IMG/VR virus record: IMGVR_UViG_3300028534_000019
Coordinates: 31,091 to 95,090 of that record
Strand: one strand, 5' to 3'
DNA: 64,000 nucleotides
DNA from: a virus
Lineage: Duplodnaviria; Heunggongvirae; Uroviricota; Caudoviricetes
Positions 6,706 to 34,802 of the stretch are shown in pieces. How positions within the stretch are numbered: position 1 is the stretch's first letter; every line of letters begins with the position of its first letter. The notes beneath the pieces are model-generated. The model saw nothing but the letters and a program-made list of their open reading frames with translations. It had not been told where the DNA came from and ran no database searches. Position numbers and translations under genes: made by a program.

Positions 6706-6954
6706 ATGTCACAAATTAATTTCAAAAAAGTTTCTTACTATGTAGTTTCAATTATGGTATTATTTTCTTTAATAGCAATATTATCAAAACCATCACAAAT
6801 TGAGATAGATGTAAAATCAGGTACTAAAACTCTAACTTGTGAATTTGCTGATGGATGGAGAGAAATAGAACCTGAAAAAGTTGTTGGGTTTAATGATGAA
6901 AATGGATATTGGACTTTTACAAATGGTTATGCTAAAAATTGTGAGGTTAGATAG
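6706..6954 (+). CDS. small membrane-anchored protein
   Basis: Hydrophobic segment YYVVSIMVLFSLIAIL after a short N-terminus. Lies behind the repeated promoter module. Confidence 0.5.
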   Translation: MSQINFKKVSYYVVSIMVLFSLIAILSKPSQIEIDVKSGTKTLTCEFADGWREIEPEKVVGFNDENGYWTFTNGYAKNCEVR

Positions 6955-7157
6955 TGTTTGTTGATAAAATTTTAGAAAATGGTGTAGAGTGTGTTTTTAT
7001 TACACACTCCAACAAAATAAGAAAGGCATATAGATATAAAAATATTATTTGGAAAATATATGCTAGTGGTGGTTATTCTGAAGTTTTTGAAAGTGAAATT
7101 CAATTCTCAGGAACAAGAGAAGAAGCAAAACAGAAATATCCTGAATTATTTTTTTAA
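6954..7157 (+). CDS. small protein with C-terminal KYPELFF tag
   Basis: 67 aa. Ends ...KQKYPELFF-stop. One of seven YPE-tag proteins in the window. Confidence 0.5.
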   Translation: MFVDKILENGVECVFITHSNKIRKAYRYKNIIWKIYASGGYSEVFESEIQFSGTREEAKQKYPELFF

Positions 7158-7166
7158 AGGTTAGAT

Positions 7167-7463
7167 ATGGATTTAGATAAAATAAGATTAATAGAAACAA
7201 ATAGTGCTTTAGGTTATATGGAAGTAGCATACCTAATACAAATAAATGAAAAAGAAATGCTTTGTGTGTATTCAAATGAAGAAGGATATGTAGGTGACCA
7301 TTCTTGGGTGGTTGGTGAAGTGTATGATATGTTTGAATATGAGAGTGATTATGATGAAGTAATTAATGATAAGAAAGAAATGGTATTAAAAGATTCTCCT
7401 CTATATGGTGATTTTTTATTTGACTTTTTCTTAAAACATCTAATTAAGAATAAACTATGTTAG
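7167..7463 (+). CDS. hypothetical protein
   Basis: 98-aa ORF. Confidence 0.45.
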   Translation: MDLDKIRLIETNSALGYMEVAYLIQINEKEMLCVYSNEEGYVGDHSWVVGEVYDMFEYESDYDEVINDKKEMVLKDSPLYGDFLFDFFLKHLIKNKLC

Positions 7464-8191
7464 ACTATATATCTATATTAGCTGGTGGTTCTTGTAAATT
7501 TAATTGTGAATTTTGTGTTGGTAATTCTATAAGAGAAAATATCACACCTCATTATAGTTCAAAAATCAAAGGTTTTTTAGAATGTTATGCTGATAGAACA
7601 CAATTACTTTCAGTTTCAGGTGATACTTCAGACCCATCATTAATAAGTGAAACAATATTTATTCCTGTTGAAGCAAAAGAGTATAATAAAGATATAAAAG
7701 TTAGCATACATACAAGGGATATATATTTTACTGAAAAAGCAATGGATTATGGTTATGATAAAATTGTTTTAAGTATTGATGAAACACTTTCAGAAAATGA
7801 TTATCAAACCTTAGTAAATTATTATTACCACTATGGTTATAATATTAGATTAAGTTTTGTTTTAACATCATCTAATTTTTGGATTATTGATGAATGGAAA
7901 AAAGATTTTCCAGCATTATTTGATATGGAATTAACAATAAGACCTGATGTATTTGAAAAAGATGAGGTTTTTAGAAAACATATTTTTTTAGAAACATTTC
8001 TTGGTATAGATGGAGATTGGCAAAATATAGAGCAATATAAAAATGAATATGGTGCTATTGTTTTAGAAAAGTACCCTAATGTTTGGTATTGGGATTATAA
8101 TGTTACTAATAAAAATCTTGATGTTTTATATCTTTTTAGTAATGGTGACATAAAAAATAATTGTAAGTGGGAAAATTTATATGAAAATTAG
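7457..8191 (+). CDS. radical SAM domain protein (activase/QueE-like)
   Basis: N-terminal GGSCKFNCEFCVG, i.e. a CxxxCxxC cluster. Confidence 0.65.
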   Translation: MLDYISILAGGSCKFNCEFCVGNSIRENITPHYSSKIKGFLECYADRTQLLSVSGDTSDPSLISETIFIPVEAKEYNKDIKVSIHTRDIYFTEKAMDYGYDKIVLSIDETLSENDYQTLVNYYYHYGYNIRLSFVLTSSNFWIIDEWKKDFPALFDMELTIRPDVFEKDEVFRKHIFLETFLGIDGDWQNIEQYKNEYGAIVLEKYPNVWYWDYNVTNKNLDVLYLFSNGDIKNNCKWENLYEN

Positions 8192-8423
8192 ATTAATAGA
8201 TTATAAAGAAGAAAGTTTTGATTTTCCTTACCCACCAAATTATGGTATGGATTTAGCAAAAATAAAAATAATGGGTAGTACTTTAGATATAGATAAGAAA
8301 CTATCTAAACATCTTGCTGAGTATAATTATTTTATGTATAAGGGTATGAAGATATTTTTTGAAGATTTAAACAATGACTCAAAAAAGAAAATGTATTCAG
8401 AATACCCTGAATATTACTTTTAG
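8181..8423 (+). CDS. small protein with C-terminal EYPEYYF tag
   Basis: 80 aa. Ends ...YSEYPEYYF-stop. Confidence 0.5.
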   Translation: MKIRLIDYKEESFDFPYPPNYGMDLAKIKIMGSTLDIDKKLSKHLAEYNYFMYKGMKIFFEDLNNDSKKKMYSEYPEYYF

Positions 8424-8438
8424 TGATTAGGGGATTAT

Positions 8439-8795
8439 ATGAGTTTAGAAAGTACAGTGGCTTCACAGTCAATACACCCAGGAACATATGAAGTACATTG
8501 GGAAAATACATTCGATACAAAAGAAATAGTTAGTACAATAGAAATAAAACAAACTATATATTCTAGTAATCAATTAAAAAAAGTTCTTAAAAAATTATTA
8601 AAAAATTTTGATAAATTAAATAGTGAAATAAAATTAATAGAACCATCATATAATAATACTGAAGAAAAAATTAATAGAACATTTGCTATAATTGATATGA
8701 ATAATGAATATGAGATTAATAAACTAATTTCAGAAGGGTATTCTTTAAAAGAGATACACCAAGGTAAATTTATATTATACAAAAGGATTATATAA
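8439..8795 (+). CDS. hypothetical protein
   Basis: 118-aa ORF. Confidence 0.45.
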   Translation: MSLESTVASQSIHPGTYEVHWENTFDTKEIVSTIEIKQTIYSSNQLKKVLKKLLKNFDKLNSEIKLIEPSYNNTEEKINRTFAIIDMNNEYEINKLISEGYSLKEIHQGKFILYKRII

Positions 8796-9316
8796 TGGTT
8801 TTAAATTTTTATGGCGGGCCGGGTATTGGTAAAAGTACAAAAGCATCAGAGTTATTTTTTAGATGTAAACAACAAAACTTACAGGTTGAATTAATACACG
8901 AGTTTGCTAAAGATATGGTTTATTCTCAATCTATGGAAATATTGAAAGACCAATATTATGTAGGTGCTAATCAACATCATAGGGTGTGGAGAGTTCATAA
9001 CTATTACTTACAACAAGGTTTTAAAGAGGATGAATTTCTTATAATAACTGATAGTCCTATTTTGTTGGGTGCGGCTTATACTGATGATGATAAATTAAGA
9101 GATTTTATTTTTGAAACTTCAGAAAGATATAATAATATTAATATTATGCTAACAAGAAAATTTAATTACCAAGAAGAGGGAAGAAACCAAGATTTAAAAG
9201 GTGCTATTGAGATTGATAAAAAAGTTTTAGATTTATTAAATAAAACTTCTTATATAGAAACAAATGATACAGATAAAATTTTATCTCTAATTAAGGAAAA
9301 AATGAGTACAATATAA
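8795..9316 (+). CDS. P-loop NTPase / nucleotide kinase-like
   Basis: Walker A FYGGPGIGKST. Kinase-sized at 173 aa. Confidence 0.6.
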   Translation: MVLNFYGGPGIGKSTKASELFFRCKQQNLQVELIHEFAKDMVYSQSMEILKDQYYVGANQHHRVWRVHNYYLQQGFKEDEFLIITDSPILLGAAYTDDDKLRDFIFETSERYNNINIMLTRKFNYQEEGRNQDLKGAIEIDKKVLDLLNKTSYIETNDTDKILSLIKEKMSTI

Positions 9317-9335
9317 ATATTAAAAAGGAGATAAA

Positions 9336-9914
9336 ATGACACTTGAAACATTTGCTGTTGAGTATAATAACTTAAAAATAGAAAAAGTATATATAAATTC
9401 ACACACATTAGAATCAGTAAAAAAAAGATTTAATATAGATTTAAAAATATCAGACCTAAAATCTGATATTTCTTTATCTATTGCTTTTCAAAAATATAAA
9501 AAGAATTTTACAGTAAATGATTTTAAGTTTGTTATCTTTATAAATGATATTGTACTTGTATTAAATATATATGAAAAAAATAATAAGTTTTATGGTAAAG
9601 TACTAACAGCATTATCACAAAAACAATTTGAATTAAGCAAAAATTTTTATCTTGGTAGTATTTTTGGTAATTTTGAGTGTACTATAAAAGAATATGCTTA
9701 TGAAGAAGTTTATTTTAATAATAGTTTTGAAAATATAAAAAAATCACTAAATGATTACAAACAATTACCAATATCACTAGATATTGCAACAAGTGATAGT
9801 GATATTAAAAGATTGAGAAAAGCAAACAGAACTGTTGATGTACCTTATATAAAAGGTTATTTTATAAAAGTTGTTGATGGTATTGATTATCTTATTATAG
9901 GTAGTAAAAAATAA
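9336..9914 (+). CDS. hypothetical protein
   Basis: 192-aa ORF. TATAAATA box at 9312-9319 and aaaggag RBS upstream. Confidence 0.5.
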   Translation: MTLETFAVEYNNLKIEKVYINSHTLESVKKRFNIDLKISDLKSDISLSIAFQKYKKNFTVNDFKFVIFINDIVLVLNIYEKNNKFYGKVLTALSQKQFELSKNFYLGSIFGNFECTIKEYAYEEVYFNNSFENIKKSLNDYKQLPISLDIATSDSDIKRLRKANRTVDVPYIKGYFIKVVDGIDYLIIGSKK

Positions 9915-9931
9915 GTATATGGAGGGTTAAT

Positions 9932-10387
9932 ATGAATAAACAAAAGTTTTATTTTAATAGTGAACATTTTGAATATGCTATTAATGACATTAAAAATAGA
10001 GTCCTATTGAATGTTAAAAAAGATGGTTTACAGATTGTTTCAGTGTTTAAGGATGGTTTACCTTTGGGTGTAAGGTTATCAAATGAATTTAATACAGGGT
10101 TGAGTATTATAAATTATGAAAAGTTTAGCTCAAATTCTGATAGTGTAACATTGCTTAAAGATGATGGTTTAAGAGGTGCTACAAATATATTAATTGTAAG
10201 TGACTTAGTACAAGATAAAAAGGGTTTTGAAAAAATTGTAAAATATATTAAAGAAAAATATGATAAAGAACCTATTATATACACTTTATTTGGTGACCCT
10301 TTGGAAAATAATACTAGATGGAATTTTACATTTAAAGAAAATGGACAGAAAATTCAATTCATTCCTTGGGTTGGAATGGATGTATAA
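9932..10387 (+). CDS. hypothetical protein (weak PRTase-like ILIVSDLVQD segment)
   Basis: 151-aa ORF with gagg RBS. The motif is only suggestive. Confidence 0.45.
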   Translation: MNKQKFYFNSEHFEYAINDIKNRVLLNVKKDGLQIVSVFKDGLPLGVRLSNEFNTGLSIINYEKFSSNSDSVTLLKDDGLRGATNILIVSDLVQDKKGFEKIVKYIKEKYDKEPIIYTLFGDPLENNTRWNFTFKENGQKIQFIPWVGMDV

Positions 10388-10411
10388 ATAATTCTAAAAT
10401 AGGAGAAAGAA

Positions 10412-11664: not shown

Positions 11665-11741
11665 CCTTAAAGACTTATAAAACTTACAATAACCTTACAA
11701 CACTACATAAAGTATTATAAATAATTATAAAAGGATTTATA

Positions 11742-13872: not shown

Positions 13873-13925
13873 AAATTAAGTATTTTTACTGTATAATAAA
13901 ATCTATTAAAAATAAAAGGTTATAT

Positions 13926-14552: not shown

Positions 14553-14606
14553 TAATCTCTATAATAGAAAATCATATAAATATTATTAAAATTAAAGAGG
14601 TATAAA

Positions 14607-15754: not shown

Positions 15755-15830
15755 TCTATGTTCCCACAATAAAATTTTTAAAAAATCAATAATAAACATA
15801 CTATTTTTATTTTACTTTAAGCATATAGTA

Positions 15831-15867
15831 GCTATAATACTACATATAAAACATAAAAGGATTAGAA
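15831..15867 (+). promoter_or_regulatory. conserved promoter module gcTATAATactACATATAAAAcataAAAGGAtta (identical copy at 32565-32602)
   Basis: A 35-nt exact repeat carrying a -10 TATAAT at 15833-15838, read in sequence. It is the archetype of a module found upstream of about 17 genes. Confidence 0.5.
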
Positions 15868-17051: not shown

Positions 17052-17250
17052 TCTAAAAAGTGCTGATGAAATATATTTAGTAGTACAGTTTGGAGCAAAA
17101 GATTTTAACAATAGAACACAAGAATTGATTGATGAAAATTATATTCCATTTAGTGATGTTGCTGTTCAAAGTTTTCACGATGAATTTTGCTTTTCACAAC
17201 AGTTTATAAAAAATCCAAAATACATAGAAGAAACAAAAAGGAAAATATAA
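17041..17250 (+). CDS. hypothetical small protein
   Basis: 69 aa. Its stop overlaps the next gene's ATG (TAATG). Confidence 0.4.
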   Translation: MIDNLKSADEIYLVVQFGAKDFNNRTQELIDENYIPFSDVAVQSFHDEFCFSQQFIKNPKYIEETKRKI

Positions 17251-18041
17251 TGTTAATAGTACCTGTTGGTTTGCCTGGTTCAGGAAAAACTGTTTTATCA
17301 AGAAAATTTAATACAGTTATAAATGCTGATGAATTGTTTAAGGATAATTATACATTAGATGATTTAATAAATTATATAAAAGAATATAATTATACAGTAA
17401 CAGATGTTTATTTGGATGGTTTATTTATTACAAGGAATTTAGTTAAGAAATTGATTGAAACTTTTGATTATTATATTAGATTAGTATATTTTAAACCTAA
17501 TATAGAAAATTGTATCTACAATGATTTATCAAGAAATAGAGAAAAAGATAGTGTTAATATAATTTATGGTTCTGATTTAAGTTTTATGAAAGAAAGTTAT
17601 TTTAGAAATAAAATAAGAGAAACAATGGAAGTATATAAGGCTGATTATGTAGAATATATAAAAGAAGAAAATAACTTTCAAAATTATATAGAAACACAAG
17701 AGTATGTCTTAGAAGGAAGTACATATGGTACTTGTTGGGATGAAGACGGCCCGTCTGAAACAACACCTGATGACCCATACCATTTTACTGATTTTACAGA
17801 ACTTGAAAAGATATTTAAAAAAATGAATATTCCTTATACAGAAGAAAATTATAATAAAATTGAAAGTGTTATAGAAGAAGAAGATAGAAGTGAGGGTGAT
17901 TATTATGGTGGTTATGCTTATAAAGAGGTTTATAGAGTTGAAGTTACATTATTAATAAAAGCAATACTAAAAGAGTTTTTTGGTATTGATAAAACAGATA
18001 TGGCATATATTAAAAAAGAATACCCTGAACTAATATTTTAA
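17250..18041 (+). CDS. P-loop kinase (polynucleotide-kinase-like N-terminus) with C-terminal EYPELIF tag
   Basis: Walker A VGLPGSGKT, then VINADE. Ends ...YIKKEYPELIF-stop. Start set at the ATG at 17250, which has an aaagga RBS. Confidence 0.6.
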   Translation: MLIVPVGLPGSGKTVLSRKFNTVINADELFKDNYTLDDLINYIKEYNYTVTDVYLDGLFITRNLVKKLIETFDYYIRLVYFKPNIENCIYNDLSRNREKDSVNIIYGSDLSFMKESYFRNKIRETMEVYKADYVEYIKEENNFQNYIETQEYVLEGSTYGTCWDEDGPSETTPDDPYHFTDFTELEKIFKKMNIPYTEENYNKIESVIEEEDRSEGDYYGGYAYKEVYRVEVTLLIKAILKEFFGIDKTDMAYIKKEYPELIF

Positions 18042-18056: not shown

Positions 18057-18569
18057 ATGGTAGAAGAAAATAATTTTAGAGAAACAAAAACACATATTTA
18101 TTTTTGGGGTAGTATCTATTCTCAATGGTACACTTCAAAAAACCAATTCAAAGAAGATGGATTTATTTTTCAAAATGCTGAACAGTATATGATGATGAAA
18201 AAAGCAGAACTTTTTAAAGATTATGATGTATTAGAAAAAATGAAACAAACAAGTAATCCAAAGGTATTAAAAAAATTGGGTAGAGAAATTAAAGGTTTTG
18301 ATGAAGATATTTGGAATTTTAATAAAATGGATATTGTTGAAAGAGGGAATTTTTTAAAGTTCTCTCAAAATCCTAAGTTATTAGAAAAACTTATAGCACA
18401 CAAAAATAAACATATAGTAGAAGCATCACCTTATGATAAGATTTGGGGTATTGGGCTTCATTGGTCAGATGATAAGGTATTAAATGAAAGTACTTGGAAT
18501 GGTGAAAATCTTTTAGGTAAATGTATTATGTCAGCAAGAGATAAAATTTTAAATCCAAAATCTATATAA
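18057..18569 (+). CDS. NADAR (YbiA/DUF1768) domain protein
   Basis: FQNAEQYMMMKKAELF, KKLGREIKGFDEDIW, KFSQNPKL and VEASPYDKIWGIG match the NADAR signature. Confidence 0.75.
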   Translation: MVEENNFRETKTHIYFWGSIYSQWYTSKNQFKEDGFIFQNAEQYMMMKKAELFKDYDVLEKMKQTSNPKVLKKLGREIKGFDEDIWNFNKMDIVERGNFLKFSQNPKLLEKLIAHKNKHIVEASPYDKIWGIGLHWSDDKVLNESTWNGENLLGKCIMSARDKILNPKSI

Positions 18570-18639: not shown

Positions 18640-20490
18640 ATGGCAGTTATTGGTATAGATTTAGGAACGACAAATAGTGCTGTTTCAGTTTATGAAGTAG
18701 GGGAATTTAAAATTATTCCTAATGCTGAGGGTAAAAATACAACACCTAGTATTGTAGCATTTACAGATAAAGGGGATGTATTAGTAGGGGAATCAGCAAA
18801 AAGACAAGCAGTCACAAACCCTGAAAAAACTATTGAAGCAATTAAAAGAATTATGGGTATGCAATTTAATGAACCTAGATGTAAAGAGGCTCAAGAAAAA
18901 GTACAATATAAAATTGTAGATAAAAATGGTTTGGCCGCTGTTGATGTTGATGGTAAGATTTATACACCACAAGAAATTTCAGCTAAAATCCTTACAAAAC
19001 TAAAAGATGATGCAGAAGCATTTATTGGTAAAGAAGTTACAGATGCTGTAATTACAGTTCCAGCATACTTTAATGATGCTCAGAGAAAGGCGACACAAGA
19101 GGCAGGCGTTATTGCAGGGCTTAATGTACTAAGAATTATTAATGAACCTACTTCGGCCGCTCTTGCTTATGGTTTGGACAAAAAAGGTGAGGAAAATATT
19201 CTTGTTTATGATTTTGGTGGTGGTACTTTTGATGTATCTGTATTAGAAATTGGAGATGGTACTTTTGAAGTTCTTTCAACTGATGGTAATGCTTTCTTAG
19301 GTGGTAAAGACTTTGACCAAATTTTAGTTAATTATATTGCTGAATATTTTAAAGAGAAACAGGGTGTTGATTTAAGAAATGATAAAATGGCACTTCAAAG
19401 ATTATATGATGCTTCAGAAAATGCTAAAAAAGAGTTATCAAGTGTTGTAGAAACTGAAATTAACTTACCATTTATTACTATGACAGAAGCCGGCCCGCAG
19501 CATCTTGTTTTAAAAATTTCAAGAGGTAAATTTGAGGGGTTAGTACAAAATCTTGTAGATGAAACTATTGAACATATTACAACAGCATTACAAGACGCTG
19601 GTTTAAGTGTAGATGATATTAGTGAATTGATTATGGTTGGTGGCTCAACAAGAATACCTTTAGTACAAGAGGCAGTTTCAAAGTATTTTAAAGGTAAAAC
19701 TCTTAATAAATCTGTTAATCCTGATGAAGTTGTAGCCGCTGGTGCTTCAATTCAAGGTGGTGTATTAACAGGAGATGTAAAAGATGTTCTTCTTCTTGAT
19801 GTTACACCATTATCACTTGGTATTGAAACTATGGGTGGTATTGCTACTAAAATCATCCCAAAAGGTACAACTATTCCTGTTAAAAAATCAGAAATCTTTA
19901 GTACAGCAGTTGATAATCAACCAGCAGTTAGTATTGTAGTAGTACAAGGTGAAGCAAAATTAGCAGAAGATAATAAATCTTTAGGACAATTTAATCTTGA
20001 GGGTATAACACCAGCTAAAAAAGGTGTACCACAAATTGAAGTTAATTTTGATGTTGATTCTAATGGTGTTTTGAGTGTATCAGCTATTGATAAAGGAACA
20101 GGTAAAGAACAGAAAATAACAATTACAGGTTCGACAGGTTTAAGTGAAGAAGAAATTAGAAAGATGATTGATGATGCTGAAAAACAAAATCAAGAAAAGG
20201 CTGAAAAAATTAAAGCAATTGAAGCAAAAAATGAATTGGATGCTACTCTTTCAAGAATTAAAAACTTTAATGATGAAGAAAAAAATGAAGTGCTATCAGC
20301 TAAAATTTCTGATGTTGAAGAATATGTAAAAGAAGATAGAACAGCAGAAGAAATTAGAAAAATTAGAGATGAACTTGAAGAAGTTTATTTAAAAGCATTT
20401 GAAGAGAAATCAAAAAGAAATGAAGGTGCTGAGGTAAAAGAAAGCACTGAAAATAATGATGATGTTATTGATGCTGAAATTGAAGAATAA
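18640..20490 (+). CDS. dnaK: Hsp70 chaperone DnaK (canonical-looking)
   Basis: [32 protein letters not shown] and the substrate-binding domain [14 protein letters not shown]. Ends DVIDAEIEE. Confidence 0.95.
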
Positions 20491-20501
20491 AAGAGGAAAA
20501 A

Positions 20502-21305
20502 TTGAAAAAATTATATAAAATTCTTGAAATTGAAGAAACTTCTACAACAGTAGAAATAAAAAAAGCATATAGAAAATTAGCTAAAAAATACCACCCTGAT
20601 GTTTGTAAAGAAGAGGGTGGTGAAGATAAGTTTAAAGAAATTAATAGAGCATATGAAGTTCTAAGCAATCCACAAGAAAAACAAAAGTATGATAGATTTG
20701 GTGATGAAATGTATGAAAAAATGGGGTCAGGTGGTGGAAGACCTAATCCAAATGCTGATGAGTTTGCAGAAGCAATGGCATCATTTTTCAACCAAAAGGG
20801 AAATCCCCGACAAGGTAATCCTTTTGGTATGGGTGGTAATCCTTTTATTCATACAACAATTCAAGCATATATTTCGATAGAAGATTTATTTAAAGGTACT
20901 TCTATACAATTACAAGATGGTACTAAAGTAAAAATACCACCTAGAACAATACCGGGTAGTAGGGTAAGAGTTAAAGGCAAAGGTATGTCAGATGGTAAAA
21001 ATACAGGAGATTTATTTATTATCATAACACCAAAAAATAATGATAAAGAATTTGTTGAGAATGATACTATTATAAAGATTATCAAAATTGATTTAGTTAG
21101 TATGATTTTTGGAAATGAAATAAAATATAATCATTATGGTAAAGATTTAATTGTTACTGTTCCAAAAAATACAAAGCCCGGTGACTTTGTACAAATTCCC
21201 AATCAGGGCTTAGGTACTCAGGGTTCATTAATTTTACATTTAGATTTAGAATTACCAAAAGCAGAAGATTTAGATGAAGAAAAAGTAAAAGAATTATTTA
21301 ATTAA
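20502..21305 (+). CDS. J-domain co-chaperone (class B-like, no Zn-finger), TTG start
   Basis: J domain with YRKLAKKYHPD...KFKEINRAYEVLSNPQEKQKYDRFG, followed by a G-rich linker and a C-terminal client-binding domain. aagagga RBS 5 nt before TTG. Confidence 0.85.
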   Translation: MKKLYKILEIEETSTTVEIKKAYRKLAKKYHPDVCKEEGGEDKFKEINRAYEVLSNPQEKQKYDRFGDEMYEKMGSGGGRPNPNADEFAEAMASFFNQKGNPRQGNPFGMGGNPFIHTTIQAYISIEDLFKGTSIQLQDGTKVKIPPRTIPGSRVRVKGKGMSDGKNTGDLFIIITPKNNDKEFVENDTIIKIIKIDLVSMIFGNEIKYNHYGKDLIVTVPKNTKPGDFVQIPNQGLGTQGSLILHLDLELPKAEDLDEEKVKELFN

Positions 21306-24380: not shown

Positions 24381-24447
24381 TTTTAATTTTTAATTTTCTT
24401 TTAATATTAAAATGCTATAATTACATAATTAAAAAAGAAGGATATTT

Positions 24448-25549: not shown

Positions 25550-26602
25550 ATGGATTTTGATTTTGATGAAATTGTTGCTACAAGAACTTATGTTGATTGT
25601 TATTGTAATGATAATATAAGTTCAGATGATATTAAAGGTATATTAAATCCTAATTTTATTAATAAAACATTAAATGAAATAGATAATTTTTTATATGGTG
25701 GTTTTAATTATTTTAGTAAAAGAGTTCCATTCACTTTAGCTGGTGGTTCTCTTCTTAGTTATTGTTCTTATTATATAGCTACAAAAAATGATTATGGTAA
25801 TCCAAAAAGTTATTTAGATTGGTTGGAATATTCAGGTAATTCTGATATTGATTTATTTTTTGAATGTGAGGAAGATTATATAAAAATGCTTGAAGCAGTA
25901 CAAAAAAATGGTTTTAGTAATTTATCACCTAAACCAAATGCTAAAAGTTTTTATAAAAAAAGAGGAAAAAATAAAAATACAATTTCAATAGATTTAGTAC
26001 ATAAAGATTATTCAGCACCACAAAAACTTATAGATAGATTTGATTTGAATAAGAGTAAAATTGCTATAAGTTCTTATGGCAATCTTTATATAGGTAATGA
26101 TTTTGATAATTATCTTTGTTTAAATCCATTAAATATAAATTATAATACTATATCAAGATTTAAAAAATATTCTATAACAAAACATATACAACCTTCATAT
26201 AAAACTTTACAAGAACTTGTACATATTTTCATTGATAAACAAGATGAAGTATATGAAAGTTTTTATAATGATGAAAAAAGAGATATACCTATGTATGGTG
26301 GGCTTGAAAATCTGATTACAATTATTGTAGATTGTAAAAAGTTATATAACATAGATTTAAAACTTAGTCGTGATGAGGTATTTAACTTATATTTAATATT
26401 GGAGAAACATTTTTCTGAAAAAGATAGATTAATTTCTTTTTTTACAAAAATAATTAATGAAGATAGTATTGATTATATACCTAAAATATATGAATTATTA
26501 TTACAACGACAAGATAGATTTTATGGAAAACAATTTGAAGATAATATGGATGAATCTATTAGAGATAAAGTTTTAGAAACATACCCTGAAATAATGTTTT
26601 AA
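25550..26602 (+). CDS. second nucleotidyltransferase-fold protein with C-terminal TYPEIMF tag
   Basis: LAGGSLLSY...GNSDIDLFFE (GGS...DhD). Ends ...VLETYPEIMF-stop. Confidence 0.5.
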   Translation: MDFDFDEIVATRTYVDCYCNDNISSDDIKGILNPNFINKTLNEIDNFLYGGFNYFSKRVPFTLAGGSLLSYCSYYIATKNDYGNPKSYLDWLEYSGNSDIDLFFECEEDYIKMLEAVQKNGFSNLSPKPNAKSFYKKRGKNKNTISIDLVHKDYSAPQKLIDRFDLNKSKIAISSYGNLYIGNDFDNYLCLNPLNINYNTISRFKKYSITKHIQPSYKTLQELVHIFIDKQDEVYESFYNDEKRDIPMYGGLENLITIIVDCKKLYNIDLKLSRDEVFNLYLILEKHFSEKDRLISFFTKIINEDSIDYIPKIYELLLQRQDRFYGKQFEDNMDESIRDKVLETYPEIMF

Positions 26603-26664
26603 CACATAAAAATTAAGTAATATTACTATATAATATGACTTATTAAATATAATAAAGGAAAAAA

Positions 26665-27576
26665 ATGGAAGAACAAATAGCGATTGATTTAGGCTATTCA
26701 ACATCAAAAGTTGCTTATGCTGATAAAATAGCAAAATTCCCAACTGCTGTTTCTTTTGCTACTGATGTAGGTACATCATATGGTGAAGGGAATATTTATG
26801 ACTTTGAGGGAGATAAGTATTATGTGGGTAGTGAAGCCGCTGATGCTGAGGCTTTTACAACTATGGATTTTAAATTTTTATATAAATTTGCTCCTCTTCT
26901 TATCTATCATATTTTAAGTAAATTTGATAAAGCAGAACTTGAAAAACCTATTGTTGTAAAAACAGGATTGGCAATTGTTGATTGGCATAAAAAAGATGAT
27001 TTTATTGAAAGAATTTCAAAAATTGAAGTGAATGGGCAAACTGTTGAAACAACACCCATTCTTATTCCTCAAGGTGCTGGATGTGCTGTTGATTGGGTTT
27101 CATCAGATAATGATGGAGAATGGCCGGACAATCTTACAGTAGTTGATATTGGTTATAATACTATTAACCTTATATCATTTTTAGAGGGTAAACCAATTAG
27201 AAAAAATATGAAAAGTTACCCAGGACACGGTGTTTCTAGTATAATTAAACCTTTTACTAGTTATCTTGAAAATACTTTTGGTACAACATTTTCAGAACAA
27301 GAAGCAATTAAATTTTTTGTTAAAGGTACTTTTAAATATAATGGTGAAGACCAACCTAAAGTATCAGAAAAAATTACAGAATTAAAATCACAATTTGTTA
27401 AAAAAATGTTTCAATCTGTTTTAGTTTCTGATAAAAAACTTCTTGCTATGTCAGATGTAGTGCTTATTGCTGGTGGTGGTGCTTATTTACTTCAAGATAT
27501 TCCATTCCCGCCAAATGTTGAGTTTGTTGATTCTCCTTATGAGTTCAGTAATACTCGTGGTTATTTAATTTCATAA
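26665..27576 (+). CDS. actin-like ATPase (ParM/Alp family)
   Basis: Phosphate-1 IAIDLGYSTSKVA, phosphate-2 VVDIGYNTINL and adenosine motif LIAGGGAYLL. Confidence 0.65.
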   Translation: MEEQIAIDLGYSTSKVAYADKIAKFPTAVSFATDVGTSYGEGNIYDFEGDKYYVGSEAADAEAFTTMDFKFLYKFAPLLIYHILSKFDKAELEKPIVVKTGLAIVDWHKKDDFIERISKIEVNGQTVETTPILIPQGAGCAVDWVSSDNDGEWPDNLTVVDIGYNTINLISFLEGKPIRKNMKSYPGHGVSSIIKPFTSYLENTFGTTFSEQEAIKFFVKGTFKYNGEDQPKVSEKITELKSQFVKKMFQSVLVSDKKLLAMSDVVLIAGGGAYLLQDIPFPPNVEFVDSPYEFSNTRGYLIS

Positions 27577-30667: not shown

Positions 30668-30669
30668 AG

Positions 30670-30909
30670 ATGGAAATACAATCTTTATTATATAAATGTG
30701 ATAAATGTGATGCTATTATAGATAATCCAATTTCTAAAGAATATAATATTCATTTTTGTAACAAATGTGTTTTAGAGTTTATTCATAATAAGATGGTAAT
30801 TGAATTTAATGAACCTCAAAAAATTCATAACATAAATGAAAATCATAAAGATGAACATATAACGACAAAAAATATAGATTTTTGTGAAGTTAGTATTAAG
30901 GATTTATAA
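30670..30909 (+). CDS. zinc-ribbon protein
   Basis: CDKCDA...HFCNKC, i.e. two CxxC pairs. Confidence 0.45.
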   Translation: MEIQSLLYKCDKCDAIIDNPISKEYNIHFCNKCVLEFIHNKMVIEFNEPQKIHNINENHKDEHITTKNIDFCEVSIKDL

Positions 30910-31217
30910 TGTCAAAGCAATGGCTTAGTGAATTAATAGAACAGCCATATGAATGGTGTATTGAAACTGTTACAAAAGAGCCTGAATTACTAAAAAATAT
31001 AAAAGTACAAACACAAGAACTTTGTGAAATAGCATTTTATGAAGATTATAAAACAGCAAAATATATACATCAAGAATTTAGATTTAATGAGAGAATTTTA
31101 GCTATTGCTCGACAGCATAGTTTATTAAATAAAAGCATACCACAAGATATGCTTGAAAAAATAAATGAATATCCATATAATTACTTTGAAAAGAAATATC
31201 CTGAAATCTTTTTCTAA
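30909..31217 (+). CDS. small protein with C-terminal KYPEIFF tag
   Basis: 102 aa. Ends ...YFEKKYPEIFF-stop. Confidence 0.5.
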   Translation: MSKQWLSELIEQPYEWCIETVTKEPELLKNIKVQTQELCEIAFYEDYKTAKYIHQEFRFNERILAIARQHSLLNKSIPQDMLEKINEYPYNYFEKKYPEIFF

Positions 31218-31549: not shown

Positions 31550-31567
31550 AAAATAAAAAGGAAAGAA

Positions 31568-32455
31568 ATGGATAAAGGTTTATTTGGAATTATTGGAGCA
31601 GGTGTATTAGTAGTTATGCTATTAATTTTAGGTGCTACATCAGTTTATACAGTTGATGAGGGTAAAGTTGGTATTGTAAAGACTTGGGGTAAAGCAGTAA
31701 AGCAAGTTAATCCCGGACTTCACTTCAAAATGCCTATTGCTGATGAGGTTGTAGAGATTGAGGTAAGAACAAGAAAAAATGTTGAAACTATGAGTATTGC
31801 TACAAGTGAGCAAATGGCGGCAAAAGCAACTGTTTCTATGAACTGGACTGTTAATAAAGCAAGTGTTTTAGAACTCTATAAGAAATATGGCTCACTTGAC
31901 CAATTTGAAAGTAGAATTTTAGACCCAAAACTTAGAGATGCCACAAAAGAGGGTATTGCTAAATTTACAGCAGAACAAAATATTAAGAACAGAGGTGTAA
32001 GCACACTCAAAGTTAAGGAATTATTTATTAACCAAATTAAAGGTTATCCTATTACTGTTAATGGTTTTCAAATTGAAGATATTCAATTAAGTAAAAAATA
32101 TCTTGCTTCAATTGATGCTAAACAAACAGCTAAAAATGAAAGAGATGCTGAAAAATTTAAACTTGAAAAACAAGCCCTTGAAGCACAAAGAGCAGTAAAT
32201 ACAGCAAATGCTGAAAGAGATGCCGCTAAAGCAAGAGCAGATGGTGTGGCTTATAAAATTGAAGCAGAAGCAAAAGCAAATGCTAAGAAAATTGCCCTTA
32301 TTGCTGGAGCAGAAGCAAAAGCAATTAAACAAAAAGCACAAGCACTTAAAAATAACCCTGCTATTATAGACTATATGAGAGCAGAAAAATGGAGTGGGAA
32401 TTATCCTACTACTATGATGGGTAGCAACCCAAACATTCTTATGAAATTAAAATAA
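31568..32455 (+). CDS. SPFH/band-7 (HflK/C-prohibitin-like) membrane protein
   Basis: N-terminal transmembrane segment, then VYTVDEGKVGIVKTWGKAVKQVNPGLHFKMP..., with an Ala/Lys-rich coiled-coil C-terminus. Confidence 0.8.
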   Translation: MDKGLFGIIGAGVLVVMLLILGATSVYTVDEGKVGIVKTWGKAVKQVNPGLHFKMPIADEVVEIEVRTRKNVETMSIATSEQMAAKATVSMNWTVNKASVLELYKKYGSLDQFESRILDPKLRDATKEGIAKFTAEQNIKNRGVSTLKVKELFINQIKGYPITVNGFQIEDIQLSKKYLASIDAKQTAKNERDAEKFKLEKQALEAQRAVNTANAERDAAKARADGVAYKIEAEAKANAKKIALIAGAEAKAIKQKAQALKNNPAIIDYMRAEKWSGNYPTTMMGSNPNILMKLK

Positions 32456-32564
32456 GAGTATCTTCTAATAGAGGTTTTTACCTCTATTACCCCTAACACA
32501 TCTACATACATATAATCACAACAACAAAACAACAAAAAATTTTAATATTACATTAAGAATATTC

Positions 32565-32602
32565 AGCTATAATACTACATATAAAACATAAAAGGATTAA
32601 AA
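32565..32602 (+). promoter_or_regulatory. conserved promoter module, exact 35-nt repeat of 15831-15867
   Basis: agctataatactacatataaaacataaaaggatta, with TATAAT at 32567-32572. Confidence 0.5.
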
Positions 32603-32914
32603 ATGGAAGAGTTTTTAAATAAGTTTGAAAAAATAGTTGATAGTTTCCCTTTAAACCCATCATACTTTTTAGTATTGGATATAGCAAATGATGTTTCAAA
32701 TGCTATGTTAGAAGATGATAAAGAAGTTTGTAGAAATATGTTATTAAAATATATTAAAATTGAATGTAGCATAGAAACATATAATGAAAACAGAAAAGAA
32801 ATTGATAAATTAATTTCAAAAATTAAAGAAACATTGATTACACTTTGTTTAACATTTTCAAGAGATGATAGTTTTATAATGGTTGATGATAATTTAATAG
32901 ATTTAGAATTATGA
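32603..32914 (+). CDS. hypothetical protein
   Basis: 103-aa ORF behind the repeated promoter module. Confidence 0.5.
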   Translation: MEEFLNKFEKIVDSFPLNPSYFLVLDIANDVSNAMLEDDKEVCRNMLLKYIKIECSIETYNENRKEIDKLISKIKETLITLCLTFSRDDSFIMVDDNLIDLEL

Positions 32915-33183
32915 TTGAAAATTATTTTGATTGGTTTTTAAATAATTCTGAAGAATTAAGTGATTTTAGGAATGATTTTTTATATACGATAATAACTATT
33001 GAAACAGCACCAAAAATGGAACTTAGTTTATTCTATGTTTTTAAAGATTTAGGTATTAATCTTGATATATCTGATATTAGTGTTAAGGTTAATAGTACAA
33101 GTTCTAGTTTAAGTGTTTCAGATAATTTAAAAGAAAAACTAAAACTCTATATAAAAGAAAAATATCCTGAAATTATATTCTAA
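32911..33183 (+). CDS. small protein with C-terminal KYPEIIF tag
   Basis: 90 aa. Ends ...LYIKEKYPEIIF-stop. Confidence 0.5.
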   Translation: MIENYFDWFLNNSEELSDFRNDFLYTIITIETAPKMELSLFYVFKDLGINLDISDISVKVNSTSSSLSVSDNLKEKLKLYIKEKYPEIIF

Positions 33184-33245
33184 TTAATTTTAATTTAAGC
33201 ATTTAATAGATATAATATCACATATAAAAGGAAAAAGGAACAAAA

Positions 33246-33461
33246 ATGAGTTTAACATATAAACAGATTACAGAACATATTTCTAAGATTAAAGAAAATA
33301 TTTCTATTCTTGAAGATAGACTTGATACTGAATGTAAAAGTGCTGAGTCTAATAGTTGTATTGCTAAAACATTACTAGAAGAACTTGATAAGCAAGAGAT
33401 GGCTTTAATGGTAGCTGAAGATTATTTTGATAGAGTAATAGATAGAGGAAGAGGAGATTAA
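33246..33461 (+). CDS. hypothetical small protein
   Basis: 71-aa ORF. Confidence 0.4.
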   Translation: MSLTYKQITEHISKIKENISILEDRLDTECKSAESNSCIAKTLLEELDKQEMALMVAEDYFDRVIDRGRGD

Positions 33462-33464
33462 AGA

Positions 33465-34577
33465 ATGAAAATTACAGAGATTAAACCTATTTTACAGTTT
33501 TCTAAAGATGCTGATGATGCTGTAATCATTGAGGGTAAACACGGTATTGGTAAATCAGAAATAGTTAAACAATATTGTTCGGAAAATGGTTATTTTTATA
33601 CTGTTTTATTTTTAAGTCATCAAGAAGTTGGTGATTTGATTGGTATGCCTTTTGAAAAAAATGGTATTCAATATTGGTCTAAACCATCTTGGTTAGTAAG
33701 AATGGAAGAAGCATCAGCAAGAGGGGAACATAATGTTTTACTCTTAGATGAGTTAAACCGAGCCCAAACTGATGTATTACAAAGTGCTTTACAACTTGTT
33801 TTAGAAAGACAAATTCACGAGCATTTCTTACCTACTACTGATGGTGTAAGAAGTCAAGTAATTGCTTGTATTAACCCTGATGATGATTTATATCAAGTAA
33901 TTACACTTGACCCAGCACTAAAAGATAGATTTTTACATTTAAAAACAAGTGAAGATTTACAAGGATGGGTTAAATGGGGTGGTGAAAAAGGAGTACCTGA
34001 TGTTGTTATTCATTACTTGCTTGAAAATGAAAATGATTTTCATAGTACAAATGAAGATGGTGAGGGTGCTACACCAAGAAGTTGGTATAAATTAAGTCAA
34101 TTCTTGAAAATATTTGAAGATAAAGAAGTTGAAGAATTTCAACTTTGGGAGATTATTAAAGGTAAAGTAGGTTCAAGTATCGGTAGCAAATTCCTTAACT
34201 TTTATAATACTCATAGTACATTTATTGATGTTACAAAAATTAAAAAGTTTTTAAATAAATATAAAAGAGATATTTCTGATTTACCTGAAATTGGTGCTGA
34301 ATTAGCTAGTTATATTAAAGGTCTTGAACAAGTAACTAAAGTAGAACAAGTTAATAAACTATATCACGACAGTATTGAAAAAATTAAAGATACTAAAGTT
34401 ACTATGGATGATGAAGATATTTTCACTATTTTTGCTATGCTTCACGCTTTTGAAATAGAAGTAACAACATCAGTTATGAAGCAATGGAAAAATGAAAGTG
34501 TGAGTGATTTTATGGATTTTGTTAAAAAAGATAATAAAGAACTCATTACATTAATAACAAGAAGATTAAAAACATAA
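33465..34577 (+). CDS. MoxR-family AAA+ ATPase
   Basis: Walker A EGKHGIGKSE. MoxR signature LLLDELNRAQTDVLQSALQLVLERQI (cf. DEINRAxxKTQSALLEAMQE). Confidence 0.8.
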   Translation: MKITEIKPILQFSKDADDAVIIEGKHGIGKSEIVKQYCSENGYFYTVLFLSHQEVGDLIGMPFEKNGIQYWSKPSWLVRMEEASARGEHNVLLLDELNRAQTDVLQSALQLVLERQIHEHFLPTTDGVRSQVIACINPDDDLYQVITLDPALKDRFLHLKTSEDLQGWVKWGGEKGVPDVVIHYLLENENDFHSTNEDGEGATPRSWYKLSQFLKIFEDKEVEEFQLWEIIKGKVGSSIGSKFLNFYNTHSTFIDVTKIKKFLNKYKRDISDLPEIGAELASYIKGLEQVTKVEQVNKLYHDSIEKIKDTKVTMDDEDIFTIFAMLHAFEIEVTTSVMKQWKNESVSDFMDFVKKDNKELITLITRRLKT

Positions 34578-34592
34578 AAGAGGTATTAAAAA

Positions 34593-34802
34593 ATGTATGC
34601 TTTAATAGGTTATAATGATGAGTATTATTACATTCAAATTTTTTCAGAAACTGATGTTGTGTATGGTTATATAATATATAACTTTAGTGGGGATAAAAGT
34701 TTAGTAGTTGATAATTTCCCAATTAGTTCAGTATTAAAAAGGTTTGAAACATTATATACTATTGAAGAAATACAAAATTTATACCCTGAATTAAAGTTCT
34801 AA
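34593..34802 (+). CDS. small protein with C-terminal LYPELKF tag
   Basis: 69 aa. Ends ...EEIQNLYPELKF-stop. Confidence 0.45.
   Translation: MYALIGYNDEYYYIQIFSETDVVYGYIIYNFSGDKSLVVDNFPISSVLKRFETLYTIEEIQNLYPELKF

Follow-up and report, generated by a model that had tools for sequence, protein, structure and literature searches.

The DNA analysed here, a stretch of 64 kb referred to as the window, raises the question of why seven plus-strand genes end in nearly the same peptide, YPE-x-x-F, directly before the stop codon, and what might read it. All seven reading frames listed in an initial annotation exist with the endings given there: KYPELFF, EYPEYYF, EYPELIF, TYPEIMF, KYPEIFF, KYPEIIF and LYPELKF. 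We coin the name PE-tail for a genetically encoded C-terminal tail of about 13 residues, whose consensus reads hydrophobic-x-x-hydrophobic-K-E-x-[Y/F/H]-P-E-x-[F/Y/L]-[L/I/V/F]-COOH, with the heptapeptide as its core.

Seven window genes share a C-terminal tail

Tagged gene 1 (6951..7157, +; 68 aa; stop TAA) carries REEAKQKYPELFF at 7116-7154. The initial annotation placed its start at GTG 6954, but the actual start is ATG 6951, which overlaps the stop of the preceding gene as ATGA. The gene is part of an operon downstream of a sigma-70-like promoter (6640-6705), and searches of Pfam and PHROG returned no family match. Tagged gene 2 (8181..8423, +; 80 aa; stop TAG) carries KKKMYSEYPEYYF at 8382-8420 and is directly preceded by a weak radical-SAM-like gene (7457-8191). 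Tagged gene 3 (17250..18041, +) encodes a kinase-fold protein of 263 aa with MAYIKKEYPELIF at 18000-18038, and tagged gene 4 (25550..26602, +) an NTase-fold-like protein of 350 aa with RDKVLETYPEIMF at 26561-26599. An actin-like ALP gene follows tagged gene 4 and is conserved in the window, in the cultured relative Vibrio phage phiKT1024 and in loci L019 and L035. Tagged gene 5 (30909..31217, +; 102 aa; tail YNYFEKKYPEIFF at 31176-31214) is the final gene of the ThyX operon. Tagged gene 6 (32911..33183, +; 90 aa; tail KLYIKEKYPEIIF at 33142-33180) lies upstream of a MoxR gene with one gene between them, and tagged gene 7 (34593..34802, +; 69 aa; tail IEEIQNLYPELKF at 34761-34799) lies directly downstream of MoxR, an arrangement similar to that in other lineages.

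Six-frame translation of the window yields nine YPE tripeptides in total. Seven lie exactly six codons 5' of the stop of real genes; one is internal to a 1252-aa gp6-like protein, as the initial annotation had noted for the only other YPEL, and one falls within a minus-strand ORF of 31 codons. Across 3000 shuffles of whole proteins or of their last 30 residues, the pattern YPE..F-stop was expected 0.0007-0.0017 times and never occurred more than once, against seven observed; the tail is thus far commoner than in shuffled C-termini. Nor are the seven proteins paralogues: minus the last 13 residues, no two of their bodies resembled each other (best BLASTP E = 1.6).

The tail marks a clade of T4-like phages

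A tail of the form [YFH]-P-E-x-[FYL]-[LIVF]-stop is a mark of one entire clade among the T4-like phages, the clade to which these genes belong. Metagenomic loci of 10-20 kb contain 5-35 tagged ORFs each (12 in L001, 5 in L003 and 12 in L004), with as many as 29-35 per IMG/VR locus. In phiKT1024, about 80 of 330 genes are tagged, corresponding to about a quarter of the proteins, and the tagged arrays are distributed across the entire genome. The distance from Pro-Glu to the free C-terminus is exact: 79 of the 225 PE dipeptides in this proteome lie precisely at -5, and at most one lies at any neighbouring position. Tagged genes account for 74/198 genes shorter than 150 aa versus 4/109 larger ones. 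The hosts of tagged phages are Vibrio and probably Campylobacterota.

The proteins that carry the tail include P-loop kinase, NTase, BspA-LRR and membrane proteins, and removal of the tails left 171 tagged proteins in 143 BLAST clusters. Membrane anchors occur in a few of the tagged proteins, whose tails lie on the basic, cytoplasmic side. As judged by sequence comparison, the tail is modular, being present on unrelated bodies and missing from distant homologues. These results support the core of the initial annotation, a modular and strictly C-terminal tag, and do so far more firmly than data from the window could by themselves. No earlier description was found in the literature, the annotation too knew of no such phage tag, and the PE-tail is apparently an undescribed protein tag. 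The annotation's suggestion of a client signal for Hsp70 is disfavoured, because phiKT1024 bears about 80 tags and has no Hsp70 homologue.

Selection acts on the peptide and on its last residue

Selection on the peptide had been deduced from codon variation among the seven window tails. That argument is weak, since Pro is CCT and Glu is GAA in 7/7 tails, but the conclusion is borne out by comparative data. In non-overlapping tails, the codons for E, F, K, Y and H match genome usage, and Pro-Glu is written CCA GAA at background frequencies.

A different codon choice marks tails that overlap the start of the next gene. CCGGAG occurs in 44/77 ATGA junctions versus 3/94 other tails, and phiKT1024 shows the same split. 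The overlapped tails read CCGGAG-N8-ATGA, a well-spaced ribosome-binding site; their Pro-Glu codons are tuned to CCG-GAG because the overlapping ATGA start needs a Shine-Dalgarno site, and the tail DNA doubles as the ribosome-binding site of the next gene. This raises the alternative that the conserved element is the gene junction itself (Shine-Dalgarno, spacer and ATG over the stop) or a recombination joint for cassette shuffling, the peptide being a mere translation of conserved DNA. The frequency of ATGA junctions (29/77 tagged genes versus 8/229) and the odd codons of the window tails (TAC 4/7 versus 9% genome-wide, TTC 3/7 versus 11%, and the uniform CCT) fit such an origin. However, 0/7 window tails overlap a start, the downstream genes having their own Shine-Dalgarno site after the stop, or a promoter, and Pro-Glu is kept in the non-overlapping tails. 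Variation follows codon phase (CCN GAR), and ATGA junctions of untagged genes encode unrelated tails. As the sole cause, a nucleic-acid element is largely refuted, and we give it very little credence.

The last residue is F, L, I or V; it is uniform across any one genome, lineage-specific and written with many synonymous codons. It is Leu in 73/74 tails of L-type genomes, through six codons, Ile in 112/124 tails of I-type genomes and Phe in 7/7 window tails. Uniformity within each genome and differences between lineages are as expected from one common reader per phage, and one common machine probably reads the PE-tails.

Two tagged enzymes and the structure of the tail

Tagged gene 3 encodes an N-terminal P-loop kinase fold followed by a C-terminal domain. 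It matches Pfam AAA_33 weakly, and its AF2 model resembles gluconokinase, PSTK and adenylate-kinase folds. All of its homologues at 30-37% identity (9/9) retain x-P-E-x-x-[LIF] at or close to their C-terminus, and neither P259 nor E260 varies among the window protein and these nine; the last ~20 residues are missing from more distant homologues. Tagged gene 4 belongs to an NTase-fold-like family usually located beside MoxR. Tailed homologues occur in phiKT1024 (129212-130351, directly after MoxR) and in L018, L026, L058, L060, L090 and L094; the tail is kept in 7/7 homologues from IMG/VR loci, one of them with a P-to-A change.

The PE-tail has the character of a C-terminal amphipathic helix with a hydrophobic end, its last three residues being non-polar. 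In the AF2 model of tagged gene 3 the tail forms a short helix (259-262, pLDDT 72-83) rather than a floppy end. Pro at N1 and Glu at N2 are typical of the first turn of a helix, and the residue before Pro-Glu can be N, D or H. A structural cap without a common reader would account for these features: an x-P-E helix N-cap and a hydrophobic turn that folds back or self-associates, stabilising fast-evolving mini-proteins. We consider this improbable, because it does not predict an identical last residue on 70-80 unrelated proteins of one genome and another residue in the next lineage, nor an exact distance from Pro-Glu to the C-terminus across such different folds.

Expression of tagged genes and the case for sorting or degradation

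The promoters of all tagged window genes are of the sigma-70 type and not T4-late, whereas the structural genes use late promoters TATAAATA. The virion-packaging signal proposed in the initial annotation is disfavoured on this ground. More broadly, the tail could direct proteins to the prohead, to phage actin-like filaments or to type I secretion. Encapsulin cargo peptides and type I secretion signals are likewise C-terminal, an amphipathic helix with a hydrophobic end would suit such a role, and the conserved actin-like gene behind tagged gene 4 offers a possible target. Even so, 80 different proteins, amounting to a quarter of the proteome, are implausibly many to be packaged or exported, the membrane-anchored examples keep their tails on the cytoplasmic side, and a phage ABC exporter was not seen in phiKT1024. 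We therefore regard a sorting or encapsulation signal as highly improbable. The clamp, also named as a possible receptor, is unlikely because the replication proteins end in a different tail: in the window, RNase H ends in SLDDFLEW and gp32 in DDLSFLEDL, and in phiKT1024 DNA polymerase ends in ESLDDW and RNase H in ADDFGW.

Bacterial C-degrons, including those of the ssrA type, are read at the free C-terminus, and non-polar C-termini destabilise proteins. The PE-tail could accordingly be a degradation signal read by host ClpXP/ClpAP, Lon or FtsH, or by a complex with a phage ClpP homologue, such that accessory proteins are short-lived or removed on schedule. Its strict anchoring and three non-polar final residues are compatible with this, its upstream helix and terminal residues resemble the adaptor and protease parts of ssrA, and tags occur on accessory genes, the replication and structural proteins being free of them. 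A true ClpP is present in phiKT1024 and a ClpP-fold protease in the window, although the best score of the latter is to a head-maturation protease. Against a degron, long divergence has not removed the tail from conserved enzymes (the kinase, the NTase-fold protein), the conserved ClpX specificity for ...AA does not match the lineage switch among F, L, I and V, and the hosts range from Vibrio to, probably, Campylobacterota. We know of no degron with an invariant Pro-Glu, and overall a degron appears unlikely.

A MoxR/VWA-zincin pair is the candidate reader

The best candidate for a reader, and one of the partners listed in the initial annotation, is the MoxR AAA+ ATPase that the phage itself encodes, in partnership with a VWA-zincin protein. 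Pfam assigns the product of 33465..34577 (+; 370 aa) to MoxR-type AAA+ ATPases (AAA_5), the putative motor; it is 41% identical to MoxR of phiKT1024. The putative tail-binding partner (35220..36473, +) is, by Pfam and sequence, a fusion of a zincin-like metallopeptidase (DUF2201_N, HEMLH) with a VWA domain whose MIDAS is intact (DISGS), and its orthologues conserve HExxH and DxSGS. Every tag-bearing relative has, like the window, a MoxR and a VWA with intact MIDAS.

Strict tags were found in 34/40 loci of the window MoxR subfamily (147 tags) versus 0/40 distant MoxR loci, a contrast confounded by phylogeny because one clade carries both the subfamily and the tags. In tag-poor genomes (at most 2 tags per ~20 kb), a tagged gene adjoins MoxR or VWA in 8/14 lineages (3.5 expected, P = 0.005), and this neighbour is usually of the NTase-fold family of tagged gene 4. 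Tagged genes also stand directly beside VWA-zincin in many lineages. Several observations count against this reader: in phiKT1024 the MoxR and VWA-zincin genes are 45 kb apart, about 80 different clients would be a large number for one MoxR machine, and the helical kinase tail also fits a structural role. The same pair occurs without any tags in an N4-like Alteromonas phage, so the pair works without PE-tails elsewhere; a virion-assembly role has been proposed for it (PMC7824862).

We put the probability that the PE-tail is a recognition tail on many clients, read by the candidate MoxR/VWA-zincin machine, at roughly 40%. The clade attaches the PE-tail to numerous small accessory proteins as well as a few enzymes, and sigma-70-type promoters drive these genes. 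Under this model, the invariant Glu of the tail would complete the metal site of the VWA MIDAS, and a pocket would hold the three terminal residues and the carboxylate; the client would then undergo ATP-driven remodelling, zincin cleavage or both. The tail may have originated on the NTase-fold protein encoded beside MoxR, with dozens of accessory proteins acquiring it later.

Comparison with known systems

As in translational coupling by an embedded Shine-Dalgarno site, the GAG Glu codon and the G of CCG form the GGAG of the downstream gene; unlike there, coupling accounts for the codon choice and not for the peptide, and the tail persists without overlap. Encapsulin cargo-loading peptides, the T4 capsid-targeting sequence (CTS), PTS1 and type I secretion signals are also terminal peptides common to unrelated proteins. 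The T4 CTS is N-terminal and cleaved, and the secretion signals of proteases and lipases, reportedly described by Ghigo and Wandersman in 1994, end in acidic and then hydrophobic residues after an amphipathic helix. The PE-tail differs from these sorting peptides in sequence, tagged genes are not late, and no transporter or shell partner was identified.

Acidic and hydrophobic residues at the extreme C-terminus also characterise the hub-docking motifs of T4-type clamp- and gp32-binding tails (gp43, gp33, gp55) and the SSB tip DDDIPF. The NWETF pentapeptide of chemoreceptors, a strictly C-terminal docking site for CheR and CheB, tethers an enzyme that acts on its carrier. It shares an aromatic residue, Glu and a terminal Phe with the window tails, but occurs on one protein family, lacks Pro and has W-E-T-F rather than Y-P-E-x-x-F spacing.

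Like ssrA and other C-degrons (ClpXP, ClpAP, Lon, FtsH, Tsp), the PE-tail is short, strictly C-terminal and non-polar in its last residues. Both kinds of tag are portable between unrelated proteins, with one machine reading ssrA and one candidate for the PE-tail. tmRNA appends the ssrA tag, with its ...LAA ending, during translation, whereas the PE-tail is part of the coding sequence of every tagged gene, with Pro-Glu invariant and F, L, I or V as the last residue. The window has a tmRNA of its own, and the tag that it specifies, ANNTDYTGNTVLSA, bears no relation to the PE-tail.

The MoxR-VWA activase CbbQO acts on one substrate, Rubisco, with an HK/HR end, unlike the up to ~80 unrelated phage clients with a Pro-Glu-x-x-hydrophobic end; the phage VWA additionally has an N-terminal zincin peptidase domain, and its recognition of the tail is inferred. 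For CbbQO to act, the substrate must supply an acidic residue to the MIDAS and, at its extreme C-terminus, a motif in a fixed position; function is lost when one residue is added there (PMC4660213). As in CbbQO/Rubisco and Rea1/midasin, tagged phages encode a MoxR-class (AAA_5) ATPase with a VWA protein, and like the CbbQO substrate, the PE-tail presents an invariant Glu at an exact distance from the C-terminus.

Seven unrelated window proteins share a C-terminal tail

The initial annotation had reported seven ORFs of the window with nearly the same C-terminal peptide, and all seven ends were confirmed: KYPELFF (6951-7157), EYPEYYF (8181-8423), EYPELIF (a P-loop kinase, 17250-18041), TYPEIMF (an NTase-fold protein, 25550-26602), KYPEIFF (30909-31217), KYPEIIF (32911-33183) and LYPELKF (34593-34802). 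The first of these ORFs exists and ends as described, but its start had to be moved to the ATG at 6951, which overlaps the upstream stop codon as ATGA. This encoded ending, an aromatic residue followed by Pro-Glu-x-x-hydrophobic-stop, is here called the PE-tail; its coding segments lie on the plus strand at 7116-7154, 8382-8420, 18000-18038, 26561-26599, 31176-31214, 33142-33180 and 34761-34799. Over all six frames, the 64 kb contains only nine YPE tripeptides; in seven cases the tripeptide precedes the stop codon of a real gene by exactly six codons, and these seven ends compare with 0.0007-0.0017 expected when whole proteins or their last 30 residues are shuffled.

The bodies that carry the tail are unrelated, as had been proposed: after removal of the last 13 residues, the best match among the seven proteins had E = 1.6, and paralogy was not seen. 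One body has a P-loop kinase fold in its N-terminal half, one is NTase-fold-like and five are small. The five small proteins gave no family match, and a homologue search with the NTase-fold protein returned the query itself only.

The tail recurs in related T4-like phages

The window, with a G+C content of 26% and nearly all genes on the plus strand, is T4-like myovirus DNA. Its core genes include gp32, RNase H, a T4-type large terminase, a neck protein and gp6/gp25-like baseplate proteins, and its accessory genes Sir2, DUF488, NADAR, ThyX, an SPFH protein, an actin-like ALP, two Hsp70s with a DnaJ-like protein, a MoxR AAA+ ATPase and a zincin-VWA protein. The Sir2-family, DUF488-N3a and NADAR-domain proteins, located at 4884-6088 and 18057-18569, point to a putative NAD/ADP-ribose-related accessory module; the NADAR protein is 49% identical to its counterpart in the Vibrio phage phiKT1024. 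Among cultured phages, phiKT1024 and its kin stand closest by terminase (41% identity), with the Campylobacter CP220 group next. One related contig had been placed in the bin of a Campylobacterales MAG. A tmRNA gene (39452-39772, plus strand) encodes the tag ANNTDYTGNTVLSA, which ends ...LSA rather than the usual ...AA and is unrelated to the PE-tail; its start, ANNTDY..., looks epsilonproteobacterial and hints at a Campylobacterota host.

Direct searches from the window returned little. Megablast of 10 kb of the window against phage records and single queries of IMG/VR with the kinase and the terminase gave no match, and the window-type DNA bait AARTAYCCTGAANTNNNNTTYTAA gave one unrelated match in IMG/VR. 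A tail profile (7 x 30 aa), which is too short for a database of 1.84 billion representatives, recovered the window's own proteins only.

Kinase homologues with 30-37% identity had x-P-E-x-x-[LIF] at the end in all nine cases, save that one has four extra residues after the motif, and P259 and E260 were among only 27 columns that are invariant. More distant kinase homologues, in two IMG/VR loci, end about 20 residues earlier and lack the tail, and the match to gp242 of Bacillus phage G is restricted to kinase residues 1-232. On the contigs with kinase homologues, stretches of 11-18 kb carried 12, 5 and 12 ORFs with the ending P-E-x-x-[LIV]-stop. A junction-type DNA bait led to a set of IMG/VR loci, the richest with 29 tagged ORFs in 13 kb; this set is skewed to ATGA/GAG junctions, although most of its tags were found independently of the bait. 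No tags were present in the first 50 kb of Campylobacter phage CP220.

Using simple ORF calls made in this analysis, as for all relatives, we found about 80 tagged genes among roughly 330 in phiKT1024 (191,289 bp, assembled from five pieces). In its proteome, 79 of 225 PE dipeptides stand exactly at -5, with at most one at each neighbouring position. Tags were carried by 74 of 198 genes below 150 aa, versus 4 of 109 larger ones. About 10% of its tails have Pro replaced by Ala (...AEYFI, ...AELFI), and one Pro-to-Ser variant occurs in the IMG/VR locus L026. Three small ORFs directly after MoxR in another locus (L061, 11192-12085; IMGVR_UViG_3300026518_000006) end ...EIQPYII, ...EIQPYII and ...ELTPYLI, which looks like a variant tail without Glu; canonical ...PEYFI tails come next.

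A logo of 171 non-redundant tails spans about 13 residues: L/I/Y at -13, E/K at -12, L/I/F at -10, K at -9, E at -8, K/E/D/N at -7, Y/F/H at -6, P at -5, E at -4, Y/L/F/E at -3, F/Y/L at -2 and L/I/V/F at -1. With their tails removed, the 171 proteins fell into 143 BLASTP clusters with several distinct folds or domains, which bears out the earlier description of a modular tag on unrelated proteins. Recognisable bodies include the P-loop kinase, the NTase-fold family, repeat proteins of the DUF285/BspA LRR and LRR_4 types, and a small number of single-pass membrane proteins. A transmembrane segment was present, upstream of the tail, in only 4 of 251 tagged proteins, and in the tagged membrane proteins the tail comes after a basic, cytoplasmic stretch.

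Selection acts on the peptide

Peptide-level selection had originally been argued from synonymous variation among the seven window tails. Within the window that argument is weak, because Pro is CCT and Glu is GAA in all seven; CCT compares with 51% genome-wide, TAC (4/7) with 9% and TTC (3/7) with 11%. The claim of peptide-level selection itself stands on comparative data. In many relatives the tail DNA reads CCG GAG TAT TTT NTA TGA, which places a GGAG Shine-Dalgarno sequence eight bases before an ATG overlapping the stop. The tail might thus be a by-product of Shine-Dalgarno/ATGA coupling, and such junctions are indeed frequent in phiKT1024, following 29 of 77 tagged genes versus 8 of 229 others. 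Codon use, however, splits by overlap. In the 171-tail set, Pro-Glu is CCGGAG in 44 of 77 overlapped tails and Glu is GAG in 72 of 77, versus CCGGAG in 3 of 94 tails without overlap, where GAA dominates (64/94); the same split is found within phiKT1024.

That coupling is the only cause is made very unlikely by the non-overlapping tails, in which E, F, K, Y and H are encoded by synonymous codons at the frequencies seen genome-wide. Untagged ATGA junctions have C-termini unrelated to the tail. None of the seven window tails overlaps the next gene, which has its own Shine-Dalgarno sequence past the stop or a promoter in between, and 48 of 77 phiKT1024 tails are likewise without overlap. Together, the overlap-dependent codon split, the background codons elsewhere, the unrelated ends of untagged junctions and the absence of overlap in the window argue that the peptide is selected. 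As judged from these codon patterns, the target of selection is the peptide, with codons additionally tuned as the next gene's ribosome-binding site where needed. Protein and translation signals would then overlap in the same bases, and this dual use is a likely route for cassette-like spread of the tail.

In one metagenomic locus (L001), Pro is always preceded by Y, H, N or D, with a NAC codon in 12 of 12 tails. It is these four amino acids whose codons queuosine tRNAs read.

The terminal residue points to a common reader

Because Pro-Glu stands at an exact distance from the C-terminus, the signal includes the free carboxylate or, at the least, the end of the chain. Within a genome the last residue is near-uniform, but it differs between lineages: Leu in 73 of 74 tails of L-type genomes (six codons), Ile in 112 of 124 of I-type genomes (three codons), Phe in seven of seven in the window, Met in one AT-rich lineage and mixed Val/Ile in other lineages. 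Leu, Ile and Val codons are one base apart. Such a pattern is the signature of amino-acid-level selection for a particular side chain, as would be expected of a pocket co-evolving with its ligands. If each tail instead had a private structural role in its own protein, a genome-uniform, lineage-specific last residue would not be predicted. We assign a probability of roughly 0.85 to the reading in which the PE-tail is a genuine C-terminal tag, modular and selected at the peptide level, with a common reader, that is, one machine that recognises it. All functional statements on the tail made here are drawn from sequence.

The MoxR/VWA-zincin pair as a candidate reader

The best candidate for the reader, put forward tentatively and at less than even odds, is the pair formed by the MoxR AAA+ ATPase (33465-34577, plus strand; Pfam AAA_5), which has tagged genes on both flanks, and the zincin-VWA protein (35220-36473, plus strand), which combines a VWA domain with a HEMLH motif and an intact MIDAS (DISGS). 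Orthologues of both are present in phiKT1024 and in tag-rich loci, with the HExxH and MIDAS motifs conserved in the VWA orthologues, and the MoxR-tag neighbourhood was seen again in phiKT1024 and in the loci L003, L005/L026, L018 and L034. A MoxR profile scan of IMG/VR yielded 80 loci, with strict tags in 34 of the 40 closer ones (147 tags) versus none of the 40 distant ones, a contrast that is confounded by phylogeny. Positional adjacency is free of that confounding: among the 14 lineages that have no more than two tags per ~20 kb, 8 showed a tagged gene directly next to MoxR or VWA, versus 3.5 expected (Poisson-binomial P = 0.005). The adjoining gene is usually a homologue of the NTase-fold gene at 25550-26602, and its tail is always kept, once with Pro replaced by Ala.

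A precedent for such recognition is the MoxR-VWA activase CbbQO, in which an acidic substrate residue is needed for the MIDAS (PMC4660213). The substrate motif is position-critical at the extreme C-terminus, where a single extra alanine is enough to abolish function, and ATPase activity is stimulated by the C-terminal peptide on its own (PMC4660213). The corresponding handle, an acidic residue at an exact C-terminal distance, appears to be present in the PE-tail at the level of conservation; Glu at -4 belonged to the pattern by which tails were picked, so that only in the kinase orthologues (E260) can its invariance serve as a test.

Several observations weigh against the MoxR/VWA-zincin pair as reader. 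The same pair occurs without any tags in an N4-like Alteromonas phage; the two genes lie 45 kb apart in phiKT1024, where tag arrays are spread genome-wide; and an AF2 model of the kinase tail shows a short, fairly confident helix. A virion-assembly role has been suggested for the MoxR-VWA pair by Iyer et al. (PMC7824862).

Some relatives (IMG/VR loci L077/L079/L080/L088/L089) have two MoxR-like genes. In these, one tagged gene (117-129 aa) lies immediately upstream of VWA-zincin, and another (182-186 aa) comes after the gene for a 411-412-aa P-loop (GSGKT) protein that lies on the downstream side of the second MoxR.

The main rival to the MoxR/VWA-zincin pair is that the tail is a degron read by a Clp/Lon-type protease. 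ssrA-type/ClpX C-degrons, which cause rapid degradation by ClpXP/ClpAP, end in ...[L/V/K]AA-COOH or are RRKKAI-like, whereas PE-tails end in [FYL][LIVF], and no AA ends were found among 251 tails. The actin-like ALP, a ParM-type ATPase encoded at 26665-27576 directly downstream of the tagged NTase-fold gene and conserved in phiKT1024 and the loci L019 and L035, is an alternative candidate partner of the tail. A conserved 165-aa protein, 54% identical to a phiKT1024 protein, was considered as a receptor and proved to be MazG-like.

An Hsp70 client signal, which the initial annotation had listed among its candidates, was rejected, since phiKT1024 has no Hsp70 homologue. The window encodes two Hsp70s, one DnaK-like (767 bits against Pfam HSP70) and one divergent (472 bits), within the regions 18640-21305, which also takes in the DnaJ-like gene, and 39844-41706; phiKT1024 has GroEL/GroES in their place. 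The DnaJ_C gene (20709-21305) is preceded by a J-domain reading frame in 20490-20708 that continues into it, and the DnaJ-like gene therefore probably begins near 20500; a NUDIX gene follows.

Virion packaging, likewise listed earlier, is unlikely. All seven tagged window genes lie behind TTAAGT-N17-TATAAT promoters, whereas structural genes have T4-late TATAAATA boxes; expression timing is read here from promoter motifs. The sigma-70-like promoters (for example 1130-1344, 13873-13925, 15755-15867, 24381-24447, 26603-26664 and 33184-33245) continue into ACATAT and an AAAGGA ribosome-binding site; the T4-late-like ones are at ~14553-14606, ~11700-11741 and ~49619-49692. Two near-identical intergenic cassettes of ~68 bp (6640-6705 and 36834-36901; TTTAAGTTTCATTTAAGT[T/C]TAATATGTTATAATTTTACATATCAAAAGACAAAAAGGATTTAAAATG), each placing a promoter, leader and ribosome-binding site ahead of a different gene, recall PeSLs, the mobile promoter cassettes of T4-type phages.

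A clamp-like receptor is also improbable, as replication proteins carry other tails. The PE-tail is absent from the DNA polymerase, RNase H, gp32, primase-helicase and gp55-like sigma factor of phiKT1024 and from RNase H (...SLDDFLEW) and gp32 (...DDLSFLEDL) of the window; phiKT1024 DNA polymerase ends ...ESLDDW and its RNase H ...ADDFGW. This second C-terminal class (window 2382-3512 and 1345-2358; phiKT1024 replication proteins) is acidic-aromatic, often W-ended, and includes ...DDLYAELGL; by analogy it is probably the clade's T4-type clamp-binding or gp32-binding motif. Several other window proteins end ...DEDEW or ...EEWKK.

Taken as a whole, a private, proteome-scale C-terminal address system in this T4-like clade, cultured Vibrio phages among its members, with the tail read by the phage MoxR/VWA-zincin machine, is a doubtful proposal. 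Under it, up to a quarter of phage proteins would carry the encoded PE-tail; VWA-zincin/MoxR would read Glu at the MIDAS site together with the free C-terminus; clients would then be remodelled, processed or destroyed; and the tail DNA would double as the next gene's ribosome-binding site.

Implications and comparison with known systems

A single short tail on a quarter of a phage proteome would offer a handle on "dark matter" genes, and hundreds of unrelated hypothetical proteins would be grouped into one pathway. A common tail predicts a single reader and may explain the MoxR-VWA-peptidase pair of many large phages. Should the MoxR/VWA reading be true, it would give a function to this widespread, unexplained pair and constitute the first viral tag-and-reader system of its kind. 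The tail could also serve as a portable tag for protein control in infected cells. It can be tested directly, because culture on Vibrio parahaemolyticus or V. alginolyticus is available for phiKT1024, Pv27, phiTY18 and Va1.

A full-text literature search with peptide strings and the concept found no description of such a tail, in agreement with the earlier statement that no described phage tag of this form was known, nor of any phage with an encoded C-terminal peptide common to a quarter of its proteins; the Pv27 and phiTY18 genome papers make no mention of a C-terminal motif. The T4 clamp-binding motif sits on DNA polymerase and on replication and late-transcription proteins, from which the PE-tail is absent. 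PEP-CTERM/sortase signals comprise a motif followed by a transmembrane helix and a basic cluster, with an N-terminal signal peptide; only three residues follow P-E in the tail, with no transmembrane segment there, and this identity was rejected. Carriers of the T4 capsid-targeting sequence or encapsulin cargo-loading peptides are expressed late with the shell and scaffold, and the peptide binds one or the other; the seven tagged window genes, by their promoter motifs, lie behind sigma-70-like and not T4-late promoters. We regard the PE-tail as falling outside all known systems, although the principle of shared terminal sorting signals is familiar: in logic only, it resembles PTS1, encapsulin cargo peptides, T1SS signals, the chemoreceptor NWETF tether and the C-terminal requirement of CbbQO.
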